A stretch of 64,000 bases of DNA from Octopus vulgaris (lineage: Eukaryota): NCBI GenBank assembly GCA_951406725.2, contig OX597817.1, positions 61,504,001 through 61,568,000 on the forward strand, written 5' to 3'. Shown piece after piece: positions 6,330 through 63,552 of the stretch. The notes below the pieces were generated by a model. That model did not search any database and was not told the DNA's origin. It worked only from the letters and a program-made list of their open reading frames with translations. Position numbers and translations under genes: made by a program. Within the stretch, counting starts at the first letter, position 1; the number at the start of each line of letters is the position of its first letter.

Positions 6330-6660
6330 TAAATATGTGGTTGAGTTGGTGTGTTGGTTGAGCTATCAATTAGTTATGGTGGGTAATTCCCGCGGATGAG
6401 TGTATCCTTTAGCTCATGTTGTCGTGTGTCCCTGGTGCTTGTATGAGATACTATAGTACAAATACATTTTGCCAGGTTGGAAAGGATATTCATTCTAGTG
6501 TGTCTGGGATGTCAAGAATCGAATGGTAGATATTGCTTAGAGTCCGTGGGCTTCTAGTAGATGTCTGTTTCTACTTTGTTGTTGGATTTCCCAATGAGTA
6601 TGTCGAAGAATGGAAATTATGTTGGTATCTCTTTATGGGAGTGGGTGTCTATCTTGCGGG
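6330..6660 (-). mobile_element. Penelope-like (Neptune-type) RT thumb fragment, decayed
   Basis: Minus strand reads KPTDSKQYLPFDS*HPRHTRMNI...LAKCICTIVSHTSTRDTRQHELKDT, homologous to the ORF at 60910-62067. Confidence 0.85.
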
Positions 6661-22000: not shown

Positions 22001-22610
22001 GGCGGCGAGCTGGCAGAAACGTTAGCACGCCGGGCGAAATGCGTAGCCGTATTTCGTCTGCCGTTACGTTCTGAGTTCAAATTCCGCCGAGGTCGACTTT
22101 GCCTTTCATCCTTTTGGGATCAATAAATTAAGTACCAGTGAAGCACTGGGGTCGATGTAATCGACTTAATCCGTTTGTCAGTCCTTGTTTGTCCTCTCTG
22201 TGTTTAGCCCCTTGTGGGTAGTAAAGAAATAGGTATTTCGTCTGTCTTCACGTTCTGAGTTCAAATTCCGCCGAGGTCGACTTTGCCTTTCATCCTTTCG
22301 GGATCAATAAATTAAGTACCAGTGAAGCACTGGGGTCGATGTAATCGACTTAATCCGTTTGTCAGTCCTTGTTTGTCTCCTCTGTGTTTAGCCCCTTGTG
22401 GGTAGTAAAGAAATAGGCATTTCGTCTGCCGCTACGTTCTGAGTTCAAATTCCGCCGAGGTCGACTTTGCCTTTCATCCTTTCGGAGTCGATTAAATAAG
22501 TACCAGTTACGCACTGGGGTCGATATAATCGACTTAATCCTTTTGTCCCCTCTGTCTGTATCCCCTTGTGGGCAGTAAAGAAATAGGTACTTCGCACTGG
22601 GGTCGATGTA
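22001..22610 (+). mobile_element. SINE family B (Meta-domain-like body), three units in tandem
   Basis: Head 'ggcggcgagctggcagaaacgttagc', body 'gcctttcatcctttcggggtcgataaa..agtacc', each unit ending 'ccccttgtgggYagtaaagaaata'. Confidence 0.9.
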
Positions 22611-34301: not shown

Positions 34302-34440
34302 TGGGTCATCCCATAAATAATGCGGTTTTTTCAATCGCTTCGGAGGGGAACGGGACAAACTACTTGCATCAACTTGCTATGAAAGCAGGTAGTCATTTTA
34401 CTATGTACTTATTCTTAGCGCAAGTTTATTTTGCGAGGAT

Positions 34441-35812
34441 TGTTTTGTGCTGAGGAGTGTGTTGTGCTGAGGAGTGTGTTGTACTGAGGAGTGTGTTGTG
34501 CTGAGGAGTATGTTGTGATGAAGAGTGTGTTGTGCTGAGGAGTGTGTTGTGTTGAGGAGTGTGTTGTGCTGAGGAGTGTGTTGTGTTGAGGAGTGTGTTG
34601 TGTTGAGGAGTGTGTTGTGCTGAGGAGTGTGTTGTGTTGAGGAGTGTGTTGTGCTGAGGAGTGTGTTGTGCTGAGGAGTGTGTTGTGTTGAGGAGTGTGT
34701 TGTGCTGAGGAGTGTGTTGTGCTGAGGAGTGTGTTGTGCTGAGGAGTGTGTTGTGCTGAGGAGTGTGTTGTGCTGAGGAGTGTGTTGTGTTGAGGAGTGT
34801 GTTGTGCTGAGGAGTGTGTTGTGTTGAGGAATGTGTTGTATTGAGGAGTGTGTTGTGCTGAGGAGTGTGTTGTGCTGAGGAGTGTGTTGTGCTGAGGAGT
34901 GTGTTGTGTTGAGGAGTGTGTTGTGCTGAGGAGTGTGTTGTGCTGAGGAGTGTGTTGTGTTGAGGAGTGTGTTGTGCTGAGGAGTGTGTTGTGTTGAGGA
35001 GTGTGTTGTGCTGAGGAGTGTGTTGTGTTGAGGAGTGTGTTGTGCTGAGGAGTGTGTTGTGCTGAGGAGTGTGTTGTGCTGAGGAGTGTGTTGTGCTGAG
35101 GAGTGTGTTGTGTTGAGGAGTGTGTTGTGTTGAGGAGTGTGTTGTGTTGAGGAGTGTGTTGTGCTGAGGAGTGTGTTGTGCTGAGGAGTGTGTTGTGCTG
35201 AGGAGTGCGTTGTGCTGAGGAGTGTGTTGTGCTGAGGAGTGTGTTGTGTTGAGGAATGTGTTGTGTTGAGGAGTGTGTTGTGTTGAGGAGTGTGTTGTGC
35301 TGAGGAGTGTGTTGTGTTGAGGAGTGTGTTGTGCTGAGGAGTGTGTTGTGTTGAGGAGTGTGTTGTGTTGAGGAGTGTGTTGTGTTGAGGAGTGTGTTGT
35401 GCTGAGGAGTGTGTTGTGCTGAGGAGTGTGTTGTGTTGAGGAGTGTGTTGTGCTGAGGAGTGTGTTTTGCTGAGGAGTGTGTTGTGTTGAGGAGTGTGTT
35501 GTGCTGAGGAGTGTGTTGTGCTGAGCAGTGTGTTGTGTTGAGGAGTGTGTTGTGTTGAGGAGTGTGTTGTGCTGAAGAGTGTGTTGTGTTGAGGAGTGTG
35601 TTGTGTTGAGGACTGTGTTGTGCTGAAGAGTGTGTTGTGTTGAGGAGTGTGTTGTGCTGAGGAGTGTGTTGTGTTGAGGAGTGTGTTGTGTTGAGGAGTG
35701 TGTTGTGCTGAGGAGTGTATTGTGTTGAGGAGTGTGTTGTGTTGAGGAGTGTGTTGTGCTGAGGAGTGTGTTGTGTTGAGGAGTGTGTTGTGTTGAGGAG
35801 TGTGTTGTGTTG
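34441..35812 (+). repeat. 17-bp minisatellite (GAGGAGTGTGTTGTGYT) x ~80
   Basis: Homogeneous tandem array varying mainly at one C/T position. The minus-strand ORFs repeat every 17 aa (3 units). Confidence 0.97.
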
Positions 35813-56670: not shown

Positions 56671-58399
56671 TGTTATGTAATCATCACAACAAACATGAAC
56701 AATCAACGTTGCCCATTGTCTCCCTTGATACAAGGACATTCAGTAAGTTTCCCGACACAACAAATACCTTGTACAACAATGGCAGTCTAATAAAGTATCT
56801 CGTATCGTTAACACGTTTTTTCACTCTCTCTCATTTTCTTAATCTTTCATACTAAGTACTCAATACTTCCTTTAATACTCAATACATTATATATATAACA
56901 ACAACATGGTGTCAGAATACTAAAAGAACCCAAAATACAGAAACCAAAAGAAAAAAGAGGTTGAAATCATACTTCAAAGACGAAATGGAAAATTTACCGC
57001 ATCCAAAAGACCTAGACTTTAATCAGGAAAATTTCGCCGTAGCATGGAAAAAGTGGAAAAAAGAATTCAATCTCTTTTTGATAGCAACAGAAAGTGACAT
57101 GAAGCCAGACAAAGTAAAAACTTCAATGTTTTTAACTTGCATCGGTTCCAATGGCCGAGACATCCATTCCACTCTGGATTTCGATTCACCCGACGAAGAA
57201 ATGAACCTTCAAACAGTAATCGAAAAATTCGATGCATATTGTGAACCCAGGAAAAACATAACTTTCCTGAGACACAAATTCTTCACATGTGGACAAGCGG
57301 AACATCAAAAATTCGATGAGTACGTGTTAGAGTTGCGCCAAAAGGCACAACAGTACGAATTCGGCAACCTGACAGACAGTCTCACCAAAGATATTCTGAT
57401 ATGTGGAATCAGAGACATGAGATTAAGAGAAAGATTATTGAGAGAACCAAATTTAGACTTACAAAAAACAATTCAAGCAGGTCAGAGTGCAGAGCAAACA
57501 CGACTCCAATCAAGGATGTTAAATGCCTCATCCGAAACAAGAGATAACGAAATCTCGAGGGTATATAGTCAACACGACAGAAAAGGCGCCAAAACTCAAA
57601 TAACTCGCCATATGCAATCCAGACATCAAAACGAACAAGGTGGAAGTGACAGAAAGCCCGCGAAGTTTCAAGCGCCAAGTCAACACTACGTCACTAACTG
57701 TCACTATTGTGTTTATAATCACAAAAGAAATAAATGCCCAGCATTTCACAAGACATGTGAAAAATGCAAGAAACAAGGACACTATGCAAAAATGTGCAAA
57801 TCAAGAAAATTTGTACATAAAGTAGAGATACATACCGACGATGAATCAGATGACGATACACATGCACTCGAAATGATCACTGCAAATAATTCCCGCGTGC
57901 ACAAAATCGAAAAGTTCAAGACTCCAAAAGACATTTGGACGGTCGAACTAAAAGTGAACAACTCGAATGTAACATTTAAAATTGATACTGGAGCAGACGT
58001 AACCGTACTGCCATTCAGAGAATATAAAAATATAATTCCAAAATAGCACAACTACAGAATTCAACACTACAAAATAATAAAACCACAAAAAGTGGACGAC
58101 GAATAATTATTCCCTGTAGATACAGATAAAAAAATAAATAAATAAATAAATAAATAAATAAAAAGGAAGATGTTATGTAATCATCACAACAAACATGAAC
58201 AATCAACGTTGCCCATTGTCTCCCTTGATACAAGGACATTCAGTAAGTTTCCCGCCACAACAAATACCAACGGCAGTCTAATAAAGTATCTCGTATCGTT
58301 AACACGTTTTTTCAGTCTCTCTCATTTTCTTAATCTTTCATACTAAGTACTCACTACTTCCTTTAATACTCAATACATTATATATATATAACAACAACA
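56671..58399 (+). mobile_element. Non-autonomous Ty3/Gypsy (Mag-clade) LTR retrotransposon
   Basis: LTRs 56671-56906 and 58171-58399 (TG...CA), 5-bp TSD GTCAT, primer-binding site TGGTGTCAGAA (56907-56917, tRNA-Leu-like), polypurine tract AAAAGGAAGA (58161-58170). Confidence 0.97.
56985..58046 (+). CDS. gag: Gag (capsid plus two zinc knuckles) fused to the N-terminal half of the aspartic protease
   Basis: Open frame with WKKWKKEF, CHYCVYNHKRNKC and CEKCKKQGHYAKMC (double knuckle typical of Mag), then FKIDTGADVTVLP. Confidence 0.9.
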   Translation: MENLPHPKDLDFNQENFAVAWKKWKKEFNLFLIATESDMKPDKVKTSMFLTCIGSNGRDIHSTLDFDSPDEEMNLQTVIEKFDAYCEPRKNITFLRHKFFTCGQAEHQKFDEYVLELRQKAQQYEFGNLTDSLTKDILICGIRDMRLRERLLREPNLDLQKTIQAGQSAEQTRLQSRMLNASSETRDNEISRVYSQHDRKGAKTQITRHMQSRHQNEQGGSDRKPAKFQAPSQHYVTNCHYCVYNHKRNKCPAFHKTCEKCKKQGHYAKMCKSRKFVHKVEIHTDDESDDDTHALEMITANNSRVHKIEKFKTPKDIWTVELKVNNSNVTFKIDTGADVTVLPFREYKNIIPK

Positions 58400-59410: not shown

Positions 59411-59693
59411 CACGAAAAAATAGTGATTGGGCTGGAGATTGAGCTTATTATTAAAAAAAGATAATTACTAATTATCTTTTTTTAATAATTTTGATATATA
59501 TTTAAAATAATATAAATTAATTAATCTTATGTATTGGGTTAAGTTTTTCATTGTATGATTTGCCTAATAGTGGTTTTATCTCTAATTTAATATAATATAA
59601 TATTTTACTATAAAATTGGATTCAATCCTAAATCTGATTTTTCCCTGTAAGTTTGGATTTATTCCCTAATATTTGATTATATATATATATGTA

Positions 59694-59753
<60 letters not shown>

Positions 59754-59761
<8 letters not shown>

Positions 59762-60096
59762 ATGAATTTCTTGTGTTTGACGGCATGAGCTGTCTTTTTT
59801 TATATATAACTTTTTTTTGATAAGGTTCATTTCAGGAACTGAAACATGTTATAATGTATATATAAAAATTAAAAATTGTATAATATAGTAGCATTTTCGA
59901 ACTTCATTTTTTACAAATATATATATATATATATATGTAAAAAATGAAGTTCGAAAATGCTGCTATATTATACAATTTTTAATTTTTATATATACATTAT
60001 AACATGTTTCAGTTCCTGAAATGAACCTTATCAAAAAAAGTTATATATAAAAAAAGACAGCTCATGCCGTCAAACACAAGAAATTCATTTATAATA
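59754..60096. repeat. Near-perfect palindrome (~161-bp arms) centred on (TA)n, formed by the PLE 3' end
   Basis: 59754-59915 is the reverse complement of 59936-60096, with one substitution and one homopolymer length difference. Confidence 0.97.
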
Positions 60097-60406
60097 CACA
60101 ACGGAGTCAGACATCTTAGAGTTCATGTATAGTTGATATATAGTTTGAAGTAAGTTCATTCATGCTATATGTTCAAAGTGTTCGATGCAGTGGCCCACGG
60201 TGGCGATACGTATTCAATACAAAAAACAGATCAAAGTGGTGGAAAGCAGTCAATACAGAAGATTGATGTTTCCGAAAGAGCGAGGAATTCATTTTTACCT
60301 TAAGCAATTGTGATGACCCATGGTGGGTGTTCGCTGGGTGGTTCTAGTGAGTCTTGTGAATTGCTCGGTTTTATAATGCCTGTTAGGTGGTCAGTCCAGC
60401 GTAGCG

Positions 60407-60740
60407 TGACGTCATCAACGTTTTGACCAATCGTTTCGTTAGGTGGCTTTAGTCAAGCAGATCGGGACGTCATCATCATTTTGACCAATCGCTGTATTAT
60501 AACTGCCTCTTGTCTGTTTCCTGTTTTGACCAGTCGCTTCGTTAGTCAAGCAGAACGGGACGTCATCCAGATTCTGCCCAATCATGACTTATAGCTACAT
60601 TAGATCTGTCCCCTGTCTGTACTTGTTAGGTGACTAGTCAAGCAGAAAAGGACGTCATCAATATTCTGACTAATGACTGTCCCCTGTTTGTATCCTGTCC
60701 ATTCTAGCAGAACTAGACGTCATCAACTTGTTGACCAATC
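60407..60740. promoter_or_regulatory. Array of five CRE/ATF + CCAAT composite sites
   Basis: GACGTCATC(A/C) at 60408, 60466, 60559, 60651 and 60716, each followed after exactly 9 nt by CCAAT (one copy CTAAT). Confidence 0.6.
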
Positions 60741-60909
60741 AGAATCGGGTATGACCCTTAGCTGTATCGTATGTATCAGGGTCAGATTTGCACGAAAGAA
60801 TTTTTTTCCCTTTTTTACTAAGGCATATTTCCGTCAGTGCGAGTGTCTGTTTAAGGTAGCGGCCGTGGTGGAATTTTGCTTCTCCTTTTCGGAGGGCTTA
60901 TCTTTTGTT

Positions 60910-62062
60910 TTAGTATTCCTGGCCCAGGGTGTTTAAACTTGGTCTAAATTTTTTTATGAAATATAGTTCTTTATTTTGGCGTTGTGTGAAGGTTGCGTTG
61001 TCACTGAATTTATAGAGCGGGTTAGTTGTAAATTTCGGATTTACATTTCCAGCACATCTACCTATGTGTCCGCTGACCGGTATTTTGCGGTAATCAGGGT
61101 TTCTAATTTGTGATTTATGCACCGCCATCCTGTTACGTAAGCTATTTTTTGTATGGCCTATATACTGCCTATTGCAGCCTGCGCATGTTATGACGTAAAT
61201 TAAGTTTTCTGATGCGCAGGTGAAGTTTGTTCTAATGGTGAACTGGTGGCCTTGTTCCAGTATAAATTCTGATCCTTCTTTCAAGATGACACAGATTCCG
61301 CAGTTGGGCCTTCCACATTTTCTAACTGCTGGTTTTGTGGTTGATGTTGAGTGCAGTGTAGCTTGGGTTAAAATCCTTTTCAAGGATTTTGGTTGCCGTT
61401 TACTTTTAATGATGGTGTGTGTTTCGAGGATCCGGTTCATCTTTGGGTCTCCCTTTAGTAGGGCTGTGCTTTGTAGTATGGTGTTGAAGGCCTCATTGTT
61501 GAGTGGGTTGTGTGTAGAGATGTAGGGAAGGGTTTTTAATTGTTCTTTCTTTTTTGGTTTTGTTTGTCTCAGGTCTTCTATACTTAATTTAAGTACCCGT
61601 TGGATTGCACTGTCTATTAGGGGCTGTGGATAGTTTCTATTTGTGAGTGTGGTTCTAAGTTCCTGGAGACGTGTGTGTCGGGTGTTTGTGTCTGATATTA
61701 TGGTGCAAATCCTTCTAGCTAAACAAAAAGGGACATTCATTCTAGTGTGTCGTGGGTGGCATGAATCAAAGGGTAGGTACTGTTTAGAGTCTGTCGGTTT
61801 ATAGTAGATATCTGTCTCTATTTTGTTGCCGGTTTTCTTAATGAGGATGTCTAAAAATGGTAATTCTTTTTCGTTGTGGTCCATCGTGAATTGTATATTG
61901 TCATTTATTCCATTTAATAGTATTTTAAATTCCTCAAGTTTCTCTATACCTTTGTCCCAGATGATGAAACAGTCATCGAGGTATCTTTTCCAGTTGTTAT
62001 GGATATAGGTGGCGAAGGTGTTTCCATATTTCTCGAGTGTTATCCGGTATAGTATTTTCTCT

Positions 62063-62067
<5 letters not shown>
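60910..62067 (-). CDS. PLE reverse transcriptase C-terminal half + Cys linker + GIY-YIG endonuclease (partial, uninterrupted)
   Basis: WKRYLDDCF, LPFLD, YYKPT, SCHP, CGRPNCGIC and NLIYVITCAGCNRQYIGHT. The N-terminal IYIY run in the ORF track is microsatellite. Confidence 0.93.
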
Positions 62068-62122
<55 letters not shown>

Positions 62123-62632: not shown

Positions 62633-62667
62633 GTTTCTGACGAAGAGCTCCGCTCGAAACGTTAAAC
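62633..62667 (+). ncRNA. Minimal hammerhead ribozyme, intact core
   Basis: gttt-CTGACGA-A-GAGC-tcc-GCTC-GAAA-CG-TT-aaac. Helices I and II are fully paired; helix III is reduced to the palindrome ACGT. Confidence 0.85.
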
Positions 62668-62855
62668 CCTCCTTCTTCCCTTCCTTCCTGAGCGTCCAAT
62701 AATACTATATTTGTATATACCCTAAATTATAATTTTAATAATAATTATTACCTTTGAAGGTTTTTATTCCCATGCTGGCTACTTGATAAGTTCGTTATTT
62801 AAATAACAATATTATCCTTATTTCTATAAAGTTATATATATGTATATATATATAT

Positions 62856-63552
62856 AAAATAAATATAAGAGAGTGGTCACTATATTGCTCACTCTAGCAC
62901 CAGTTAATCCAAAAGGTTTCAACCACGAAAATACATGCTTACCATGAAAGTCAGTACGATTGTTAGCTCACACGGACAGGGCAAATAAAAAATAACAAAA
63001 ATACAGATTATTTTGGGACAATTGTTTCGCTATTAATGAATTAAATGTAATTTTACTTACAAAAAAAATCCATTTGTAGCTCGTCAGCCAAGACTATCTG
63101 GATGAAATCCACTCAATCACACGCCAGATTTTACCATAACGATAAATACGCGTGTGGTTCAATTGATTACATCCGACGTTATAATTCAAATGCCCCAACC
63201 AACAGCGCGCCAAACTTTCACGGAAAACAAATACAGCATTTAGAAATAAATGCAGCATAATTATAATTAATTAATAAGGGTGAGAGAATTAGATACTAAT
63301 TTAATAGTATATTTATTCAACACCAAGTGGCCTAGTGCTTCGAGAAACCTGGATTATTATAATATTTTATAACATATTATAATATTTTTACAAAATAAAT
63401 ATAAGAGAGTGGTCACTATATTGCTCACTCTAGCACCAGTTAATCCAAAAGGTTTCAACCACGAAAATACATGCTTACCATGAAAGTCAGTACGATTGTT
63501 AGCTCACACGGACAGGGCAAATATACTATTAAATTAGTATCTAATTCTCTCA
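62856..63552 (-). mobile_element. Non-coding PLE/retrozyme-like unit with direct terminal repeats and an inverted segment
   Basis: 62856-62987 equals 63392-63523 (132 bp). 63519-63552 is an inverted copy of 63281-63314. It abuts (TA)n and contains an HHR. Confidence 0.8.
63013..63091 (-). ncRNA. Type I hammerhead ribozyme, intact
   Basis: ttgg-CTGACGA-gcta...tagc-GAAA-caattg-TC-ccaa. GUC cleavage is predicted between 63017 and 63016, with a palindromic AAUU loop in helix III. Confidence 0.88.

Follow-up and report, generated by a model that had tools for sequence, protein, structure and literature searches.

The locus and its host element

The window analysed here is a stretch of 64,000 nt of Octopus vulgaris DNA (contig OX597817.1), and all coordinates count from its first letter. 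Towards the end of the window lies a PLE insertion on the minus strand, which is bounded by (TA)n at both ends and consists of the following parts:

62066 to 62121, no strand: (TA)n where the element is truncated at its 5' end, from sequence reading
60910 to 62064, minus strand: 5'-truncated PLE ORF with the C-terminal part of the RT (YLDD), thumb, CX4CxxC linker and C-terminal GIY-YIG, without internal stop
59934 to 60909, minus strand: 3' UTR or pseudo-LTR (pLTR) region, about 975 nt long, with (TA)n at its end and the hammerhead-to-(TA)n layout of the relatives L001 and L010
59754 to 59925, plus strand: 172 nt copied from the 3' end of the element in inverted, tail-to-tail orientation (169 identities, 2 substitutions, 1 indel)
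59678 to 59755, no strand: (TA)n at the other end of the insertion, from sequence reading

By the domain and motif criteria of PMC8557442, the sequence of the host element is that of a canonical EN+ Neptune-type PLE. The YLDD motif is found at residue 28 of the ORF, the linker CGRPNCGIC at residue 250 and the endonuclease domain PF01541 at residues 288-375, and the ORF aligns to residues about 379-752 of relatives that are 753 aa long. Longer relatives were drawn from 143 matching proteins among 2898 candidates, and motifs were counted in the 120 that were listed. The linker is present in 120/120 of these and GIY-YIG falls within the last 150 aa in 118/120. The DKG region has been lost here by the 5' truncation; among the 120 relatives listed, ADKG is read in 114 and ADKA in 0. 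The best named match is a predicted protein of Octopus vulgaris (91% over 58% of the query). Several other PLE types can be set aside. The CCHH motif of the endonuclease (C294, C297, H316 and H333, invariant in 57 aligned sequences) excludes the Hydra and Chlamys types; a CX2-5CxxC linker before the endonuclease, as defined in PMC8557442, is present as well. Naiad is rejected because its endonuclease is N-terminal and the one found here is C-terminal. Neptune is favoured over Nematis because the linker is full-length, and in Nematis it is described as reduced (PMC8557442).

The inverted copy carries its own hammerhead-like motif (59817-59850) and forms with 59926-60096 a near-perfect 343-nt palindrome (59754-60096) centred on (TA)n. 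This arrangement would fit self-priming on a sense template, by analogy with the proposal made in PMC3846280. No head-to-tail tandem is found at the locus, where the inverted 172-nt copy and (TA)n stand downstream and no second ORF follows; nor did inspection of the sequence reading out from the element's 3' end reveal any ORF start. The insertion looks young, because its ORF is open and the palindrome arms are 98% identical. An old, stop-containing remnant of a related Neptune-type RT lies at 6359-6616 on the minus strand; its DNA is 75% identical to that of the main element, and it has no 3' UTR.

Relatives of the element

Ten further PLE loci (L001-L010) were obtained from 48 candidates in one scan of bacterial and archaeal genome contigs (GTDB collection); the plasmid and phage collections gave no PLE match. 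The presence of these loci in bacterial bins is most likely due to contamination with animal host DNA. The Neptune linker occurs in 3/10 loci (L001, L007 and L010). The hexamer ACGTCA was looked for in six loci; L006, L008 and L009 are without a usable 3' UTR, and that of L007 is cut at 158 nt. Both Neptune-type loci whose UTR reaches the hammerhead (2/2; L001 and L010, the hammerhead of L001 having been read by eye and not listed by the descriptor search) contain two copies of ACGTCA each, 32-77 nt before the hammerhead, and in both the pair lies in a short duplication (p=0.005 and 0.0002, dinucleotide shuffling). The hexamer is absent from the 158 nt of L007, from the decayed L002 and from the three Poseidon-type loci (0/3), and no CCAAT is found in the UTRs of L001 and L010. 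The co-occurrences of ACGTCA with CCAAT in L008 and of TGACGT with CCAAT in L005 are ascribed to chance, as they lie inside ORFs and at other distances.

The octopus element resembles L001 and L010 in its domain order and linker; these two relatives have two ACGTCA sites ahead of the hammerhead and, about 85-100 nt beyond it, reach a T-rich end at (TA)n. Unlike it, they have no CCAAT, a short UTR (145-189 nt to the hammerhead in L010 and L001, vs about 875 nt to the hammerhead-like motif here) and a C3-G8 hammerhead core, at about 40% protein identity. These sequences, a very small sample, hint that Neptune-type elements commonly double a CRE-like site, whereas the CCAAT partner would be specific to a lineage.

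The array of repeated units

The initial annotation had reported, within the 3' UTR of a PLE, five copies of a CRE-like motif followed by N9 and CCAAT. A motif search of the 64 kb window confirms the five units, their distances and the sequences of their spacers, and the surrounding region is indeed a PLE 3' UTR, on the minus strand. The array occupies 60408-60740, with units starting at 60408, 60466, 60559, 60651 and 60716 and therefore separated by 58, 93, 92 and 65 bp. From the most distal unit to the TATA-proximal one, it reads:

60700 to 60741, minus strand: core of unit 5, the most distal to the TATA box, with the exact motif, a full extended NF-Y match and a CRE octamer with 1 mismatch
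60635 to 60676, minus strand: core of unit 4, with CTAAT and an intact CRE-like site
60543 to 60584, minus strand: core of unit 3, with GACGTCATCC, an intact CCAAT and a weaker NF-Y flank
60524 to 60538, minus strand: partial sixth copy, with CCAGT and no CRE, from comparison within the repeat family
60450 to 60491, minus strand: core of unit 2, with the exact motif and a full extended NF-Y match
60392 to 60433, minus strand: core of unit 1, TATA-proximal, with the sole perfect TGACGTCA (60407-60414, at -66..-59 from the candidate start described below) and its CCAAT at -83..-79

The count of five copies holds for the units and less well for the motif itself. The complete GACGTCATCA-N9-CCAAT is exact in 3/5 units, since the unit at 60559 reads GACGTCATCC with its CCAAT intact and the unit at 60651 has CTAAT in place of CCAAT beside an intact CRE-like site; the full octamer TGACGTCA is present in 1/5; and the partial sixth copy, in which both motifs are lost, had gone uncounted. 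The extended NF-Y consensus is CCAAT with YRR and SR flanks, and is matched in full in 3/5 units, CCAAT itself being intact in 4/5. The half-site CGTCA is kept in 5/5 units, and under the criterion for a CRE used in PMC3671974 (at most one mismatch to TGACGTCA) one of the five sites is perfect and the other four carry one mismatch. With up to 3 mismatches allowed, neither strand of the 64 kb window yields a further match or a second copy of the array, which argues that the array is not a chance occurrence.

The five spacers had been described as differing in sequence. They are not independent sequences: the units belong to one homologous repeat family (67-73% identity to the first unit over 51 nt, gap-free), and the last three bases of N9 (TGA) are part of the extended NF-Y site. 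The gap-free core shared by the units measures 42 bp and includes, upstream of the two motifs, a third conserved block. Since identity between units outside the motifs is 52-81% and the insertion looks young, the array appears to have diverged in an active transposing lineage and not at this locus. The unit spacings correspond to 5.5, 8.9, 8.8 and 6.2 helical turns, with no common helical phase. The third block itself (TAGTCAAGCAGA on the plus strand; 60450-60461, and the matching positions of each other unit) lies 4 nt from the CRE and may be a candidate factor site; CACCTAAC comes next after it on the sense strand in 3/5 units.

Conservation of the motifs and of their spacing

Mismatches to the column majority of the 42-bp core in the five units are few in the two motifs (1/50 in GACGTCATCA, 1/25 in CCAAT) and more frequent elsewhere: 9/45 in N9 (8/30 at positions 1-6 and 1/15 at positions 7-9), 7/20 in the 4-nt linker and 7/60 in the third block, with 47-53% divergence in the flanks outside the core. 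All five CpGs are kept. The 15 motif columns differ from the other core columns (2/75 vs 26/135 mismatches, p=0.0003), and likewise from N9 (2/75 vs 9/45, Fisher p=0.002). With the textbook sites, the CRE octamer and the CCAAT pentamer, the counts are 3/65 against 25/145 in the remaining core columns (p=0.008, and p=0.013 when columns are permuted), or p=0.03 with the 10-bp NF-Y site in place of CCAAT. On the other hand, correction for the post-hoc choice of motifs, taking the best blocks of 10 and 5 columns anywhere in the core with columns shuffled, leaves p=0.13, and all these p values are optimistic because the unit copies are related and not independent; the third block is, besides, nearly as well conserved. 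The retention of the two motifs by selection is therefore moderately supported by the sequence comparison.

The constant spacing, previously regarded as a special feature of the array, does not stand out. For assumed indel/substitution ratios of 0.2-0.05, the probability of finding no indel in N9 is 0.2-0.67, which is not significant by itself, and that of finding none in the whole 42-bp core is 0.008-0.30 (computed with 24 substitutions; the column tally is 25). As the gap-free stretch spans 42 bp, constancy is not special to N9, and because the units are tandem-duplicated copies of one such core, the invariant N9 is mostly a matter of inheritance.

These results bear on a neutral alternative, in which a segment of the 3' UTR expanded in the manner of a minisatellite by template slippage, the motifs being columns that remained unchanged by chance. 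The units are plainly duplicates of irregular length with a broken sixth copy, the corrected p value agrees with such an expansion, a spacer free of indels is expected by chance, and the UTR is far longer than those of L010 and L001. Nevertheless, the columns that were kept coincide with the textbook CRE and CCAAT sites (p about 0.01) while the flanks diverge, ACGTCA is doubled in the relatives as well, and the TATA box, initiator and splice sites described below share a strand and are correctly ordered. Purely neutral expansion is considered quite unlikely.

Another possibility is that the repeats act in RNA, as hairpins or by binding the RT of the element or host factors. The sense-strand array folds somewhat more stably than expected (z=-1.87; 4/100 shuffles as stable), and a 4-bp GUCA/UGAC stem across the spacer could form in 4/5 units. 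However, the consensus fold amounts to -2 kcal/mol with 4 pairs, 0 of them with a compensatory change, the folds of single units differ from each other and no Rfam family is matched at the gathering score, all of which makes a function in RNA very improbable.

Candidate promoter signals downstream of the array

On the sense strand, the array of five homologous units ends in the one with the perfect CRE and is followed by TATAAAA, an initiator match, a donor/acceptor pair, a hammerhead-like motif and the (TA)n end. The initiator consensus is BBCABW. The signals beyond the array are these:

60369 to 60375, minus strand: TATA box reading TATAAAA, separated from the perfect CRE by 31 nt
60346 to 60351, minus strand: match to BBCABW, with the predicted, candidate start A at 60348, 27 nt from the TATA box
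60016 to 60298, minus strand: candidate 5' UTR intron of 283 nt, predicted from the sole MAG/GTRA donor and the sole YYYCAG/R acceptor in the UTR (the slash marks the splice point)
60001 to 60034, minus strand: minimal hammerhead-like motif with a U3-A8 core, helix II of 4-5 bp, palindromic helix III and helix I of 1 bp

For the TATA box, splice sites and hammerhead, shuffles were compared over windows set once the sequence had been inspected, and the frequencies that follow are to be read with this in mind. A TATAWAW within 100 nt is found in 2.6% of 20,000 shuffles, and one followed by an initiator 25-33 nt later in 0.3% of 20,000; the real pair exists on the sense strand only, its distance of 27 nt being at the short end of the range, and the antisense strand of 60097-60909 has no TATAWAW. 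The CRE proximal to the TATA box is the best of the array. Relative to the candidate start at 60348, it occupies -66..-59 and the nearest CCAAT lies close to -80, which is the usual NF-Y position (PMC3730095). The donor at 60298 is at +51, and the acceptor at 60016 lies inside hammerhead loop II. A unique donor and a unique acceptor arise in 1.0% and 3.1% of shuffles singly and in 0/20,000 jointly, and neither site occurs on the antisense strand of the UTR. The hammerhead-like motif, which appears in 9/2000 shuffles, has the U3-A8 core of a variant described for PLEs (PMC4209133). Rfam gives no match at the gathering score, hammerhead motifs going undetected by it, and the miRNA rows it returned were rejected as (TA)n/palindrome artefacts. 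An ATG at 60322 on the minus strand, 26 nt after the candidate start and in a strong Kozak-like context, opens a short upstream ORF only, whether the transcript is spliced or not.

The array might instead serve a core promoter situated towards the hammerhead, as an orientation-independent enhancer or as an antisense or bidirectional promoter, in which case the TATA box at 60375 would not set the start. Other TATA-like words do lie closer to the hammerhead (about 60142, 60093 and 60049), L001 and L003 have TATAWAW 26-35 nt before theirs, the Penelope promoter is internal (PMC2377424), and bidirectional pLTR promoters have been proposed (PMC3846280). Against this, the succession of CCAAT at -80, CRE at -60, TATA box, initiator and donor at +51 fits a start at 60348, the antisense strand is devoid of TATAWAW, donor and acceptor, and no initiator is found at DPE distance on the plus strand, for which reason a reading of the array as DPEs was rejected. 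The enhancer or antisense alternative is thus held to be unlikely.

A series of enhancer repeats ahead of a TATA box is also LTR-like, and the UTR is unusually long, as might be expected if the array and TATA box were the U3 of a solo LTR or of another element nested in the PLE 3' UTR. However, 0/140 TG..CA pairs that bracket the array have a target duplication of 4-6 bp, neither strand contains AATAAA, the longest bracketing inverted repeat is 8 nt and the composition is even; a nested element is, of the explanations weighed here, one with hardly any likelihood.

Proposed mechanism

The interpretation that we favour, and regard as likely from the sequence, is that the array forms the upstream part of a pseudo-LTR RNA polymerase II promoter, in which an ATF/CREB-family dimer and NF-Y would bind the units, a sense transcript would start near 60348 and the next tandem copy would be transcribed with a spliced 5' UTR. 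According to this model, a unit made of a bZIP site and CCAAT would have been multiplied by tandem duplication, and the units would recruit the two factors, whose identity is suggested by the sites. The proximal unit and the TATA box would then set a sense-direction start at about 60348, and the 283-nt intron would be spliced out. In a head-to-tail tandem, the promoter would drive the full-length copy downstream, as it does in Penelope. At the present locus, which has no ORF downstream, transcription would instead lead into the hairpin; this would measure 172 bp in an unspliced transcript and about 90 bp in a spliced one.

The layout is probably that of a PLE pseudo-LTR with an upstream, TATA-type promoter instead of the internal one of Penelope, as far as can be judged from the order of the predicted signals. 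The proposal of a selected composite promoter is supported for the pLTR promoter (TATA box, initiator and splice pair downstream) and moderately for the retention of the motifs, and is not supported for selection on the exact spacing. Responsiveness to cAMP or activity, or to stress, which had also been suggested, finds no backing in the sequence, where neither ERSE nor UPRE is matched, and remains a guess because CRE and TATA content predict induction poorly, as seen in mouse liver, where they do so only weakly (PMC3671974).

Comparison with known promoters and modules

The pLTR of Penelope from D. virilis is a proven promoter region, and the only PLE promoter dissected with reporters in the literature found; it is internal and TATA-less (PMC2377424). 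As in Penelope, the promoter predicted here lies in the 3' UTR/pLTR upstream of the hammerhead and would serve a downstream tandem copy (PMC2377424, PMC4209133). The intron of Penelope begins at +46 and ends at its hammerhead, and the predicted one here has its donor at +51 and its acceptor at the hammerhead (PMC2377424, PMC4209133), although it is 283 nt long vs 75 nt in Penelope, which belongs to a different clade. Unlike Penelope, whose internal promoter has an RGACGTGY element (0 matches in 60301-60800), the octopus element has its sites upstream of a TATA box and multimerised. A start and an intron within the pLTR are also found in Chlamys-3 (PMC8557442). Another example is that of the Penelope pLTRs of Adineta vaga, for which a putative TATA box and a TCACT initiator, as well as bidirectional promoters, have been proposed, and which likewise show inverted-repeat, palindromic insertions; these pLTRs are about 200 bp long, the available text mentions no upstream factor array, and their inversions are usually head-to-head, whereas the one described here is tail-to-tail (PMC3846280).

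Tandem CCAAT repeats in the regulatory region of a retroelement are known from the E3 repeats of human LTR12/ERV-9 (PMC3730095, PMC4889920, PMC7793273). At human NF-Y sites and LTRs, AP-1 or E-box sites lie 10-12 bp 5' of CCAAT and ATF2/ATF3 are positionally biased (PMC3730095, PMC7793273). The bZIP octamer of the octopus array ends 12 nt 5' of CCAAT, so that the partner stands at about one helical turn as in the human composites, with the caveat that measuring conventions differ. The octopus module differs from these in that its partner is of the CRE type (ACGT core) and not AP-1, E-box or GATA, and in that it is read from the sequence of an invertebrate PLE without homology to them. Moreover, the adjacency of CRE and CCAAT need not mean cooperation, because human ATF2/3/4 peaks overlap NF-Y little (PMC7793273). 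Within the sources searched, no PLE pLTR with CCAAT and no invertebrate retrotransposon promoter made of CRE and CCAAT in tandem repeats was found. The array motif was not found in the supplements of PMC13282606 and PMC11167929 (3 files), and gave one chance ORF match in those of PMC8557442. Promoters in pLTRs and tandem NF-Y modules in retroelements are both already known; what is new within the literature searched is that a Neptune-type PLE would join the two, under an upstream promoter of the TATA type.

A CRE/CCAAT pair exists in the fibronectin promoter. Other modules join NF-Y to a partner at a fixed distance, such as ERSE (CCAAT-N9-CCACG), whose partner is 3' of CCAAT and not 5' as here, and related elements are ERSE-II (ATTGG-N-CCACG) and UPRE (TGACGTGR). 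The three were rejected, with 0 matches on both strands of 60301-60800. DECA-CCAAT, in which GAnnGAC precedes CCAAT by 11 bp, is likewise a fixed-distance module (bioRxiv 10.64898/2026.02.16.706105) and was rejected with 0 matches in either orientation.

Significance of the predicted promoter at the 3' end

The element, as predicted from its sequence, would offer a precise model of a second type of PLE promoter, upstream and TATA-containing, with named sites and a predicted start and intron. PLEs account for 6.8% of the O. vulgaris genome (PMC13282606), so that an active family with a promoter at its 3' end could spread it to many places. If transcribed, the tail-to-tail palindrome at 59754-60096 would yield long dsRNA. 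A broader view is conceivable though rather doubtful, resting on a sample of two relatives and on ingredients each of which is already known: multimerised ATF/CREB sites would be a long-kept core of the pLTR promoter in Neptune-type PLEs, and the octopus lineage would have supplemented it with a TATA box and an NF-Y site at a stereo-specific distance, in convergence with the bZIP/NF-Y grammar that ERV LTRs of mammals use. As PLE insertions always keep their 3' end, each would then leave behind a whole promoter able to respond to signals, and tail-to-tail ones such as this would turn it into a source of long hairpin RNA.

Other elements in the window

A second minimal hammerhead, with a C3-G8 core and palindromic helix III, is found at 62637-62670 on the plus strand, in an unrelated short element beside (ATGT)n, which is probably another PLE 3' end or a retrozyme. 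A Gypsy-type LTR element occupies 56672-58398 (plus strand), whose two LTRs of about 230 nt differ by 3 substitutions and 4 indels (222 identities); its gag-protease-like ORF at 56856-58046 has a zinc knuckle and an early stop, the rest of pol being absent. Among the tandem repeats, a 17-bp minisatellite with 94% matches fills 34435-35809 in about 81 copies, and 22049-22547 holds 2.7 copies of a 184-bp unit, which we take to resemble a SINE. Finally, near-identical copies of a short repeat are seen by eye at 62830-62990 and 63390-63525, with flanking pieces inverted.
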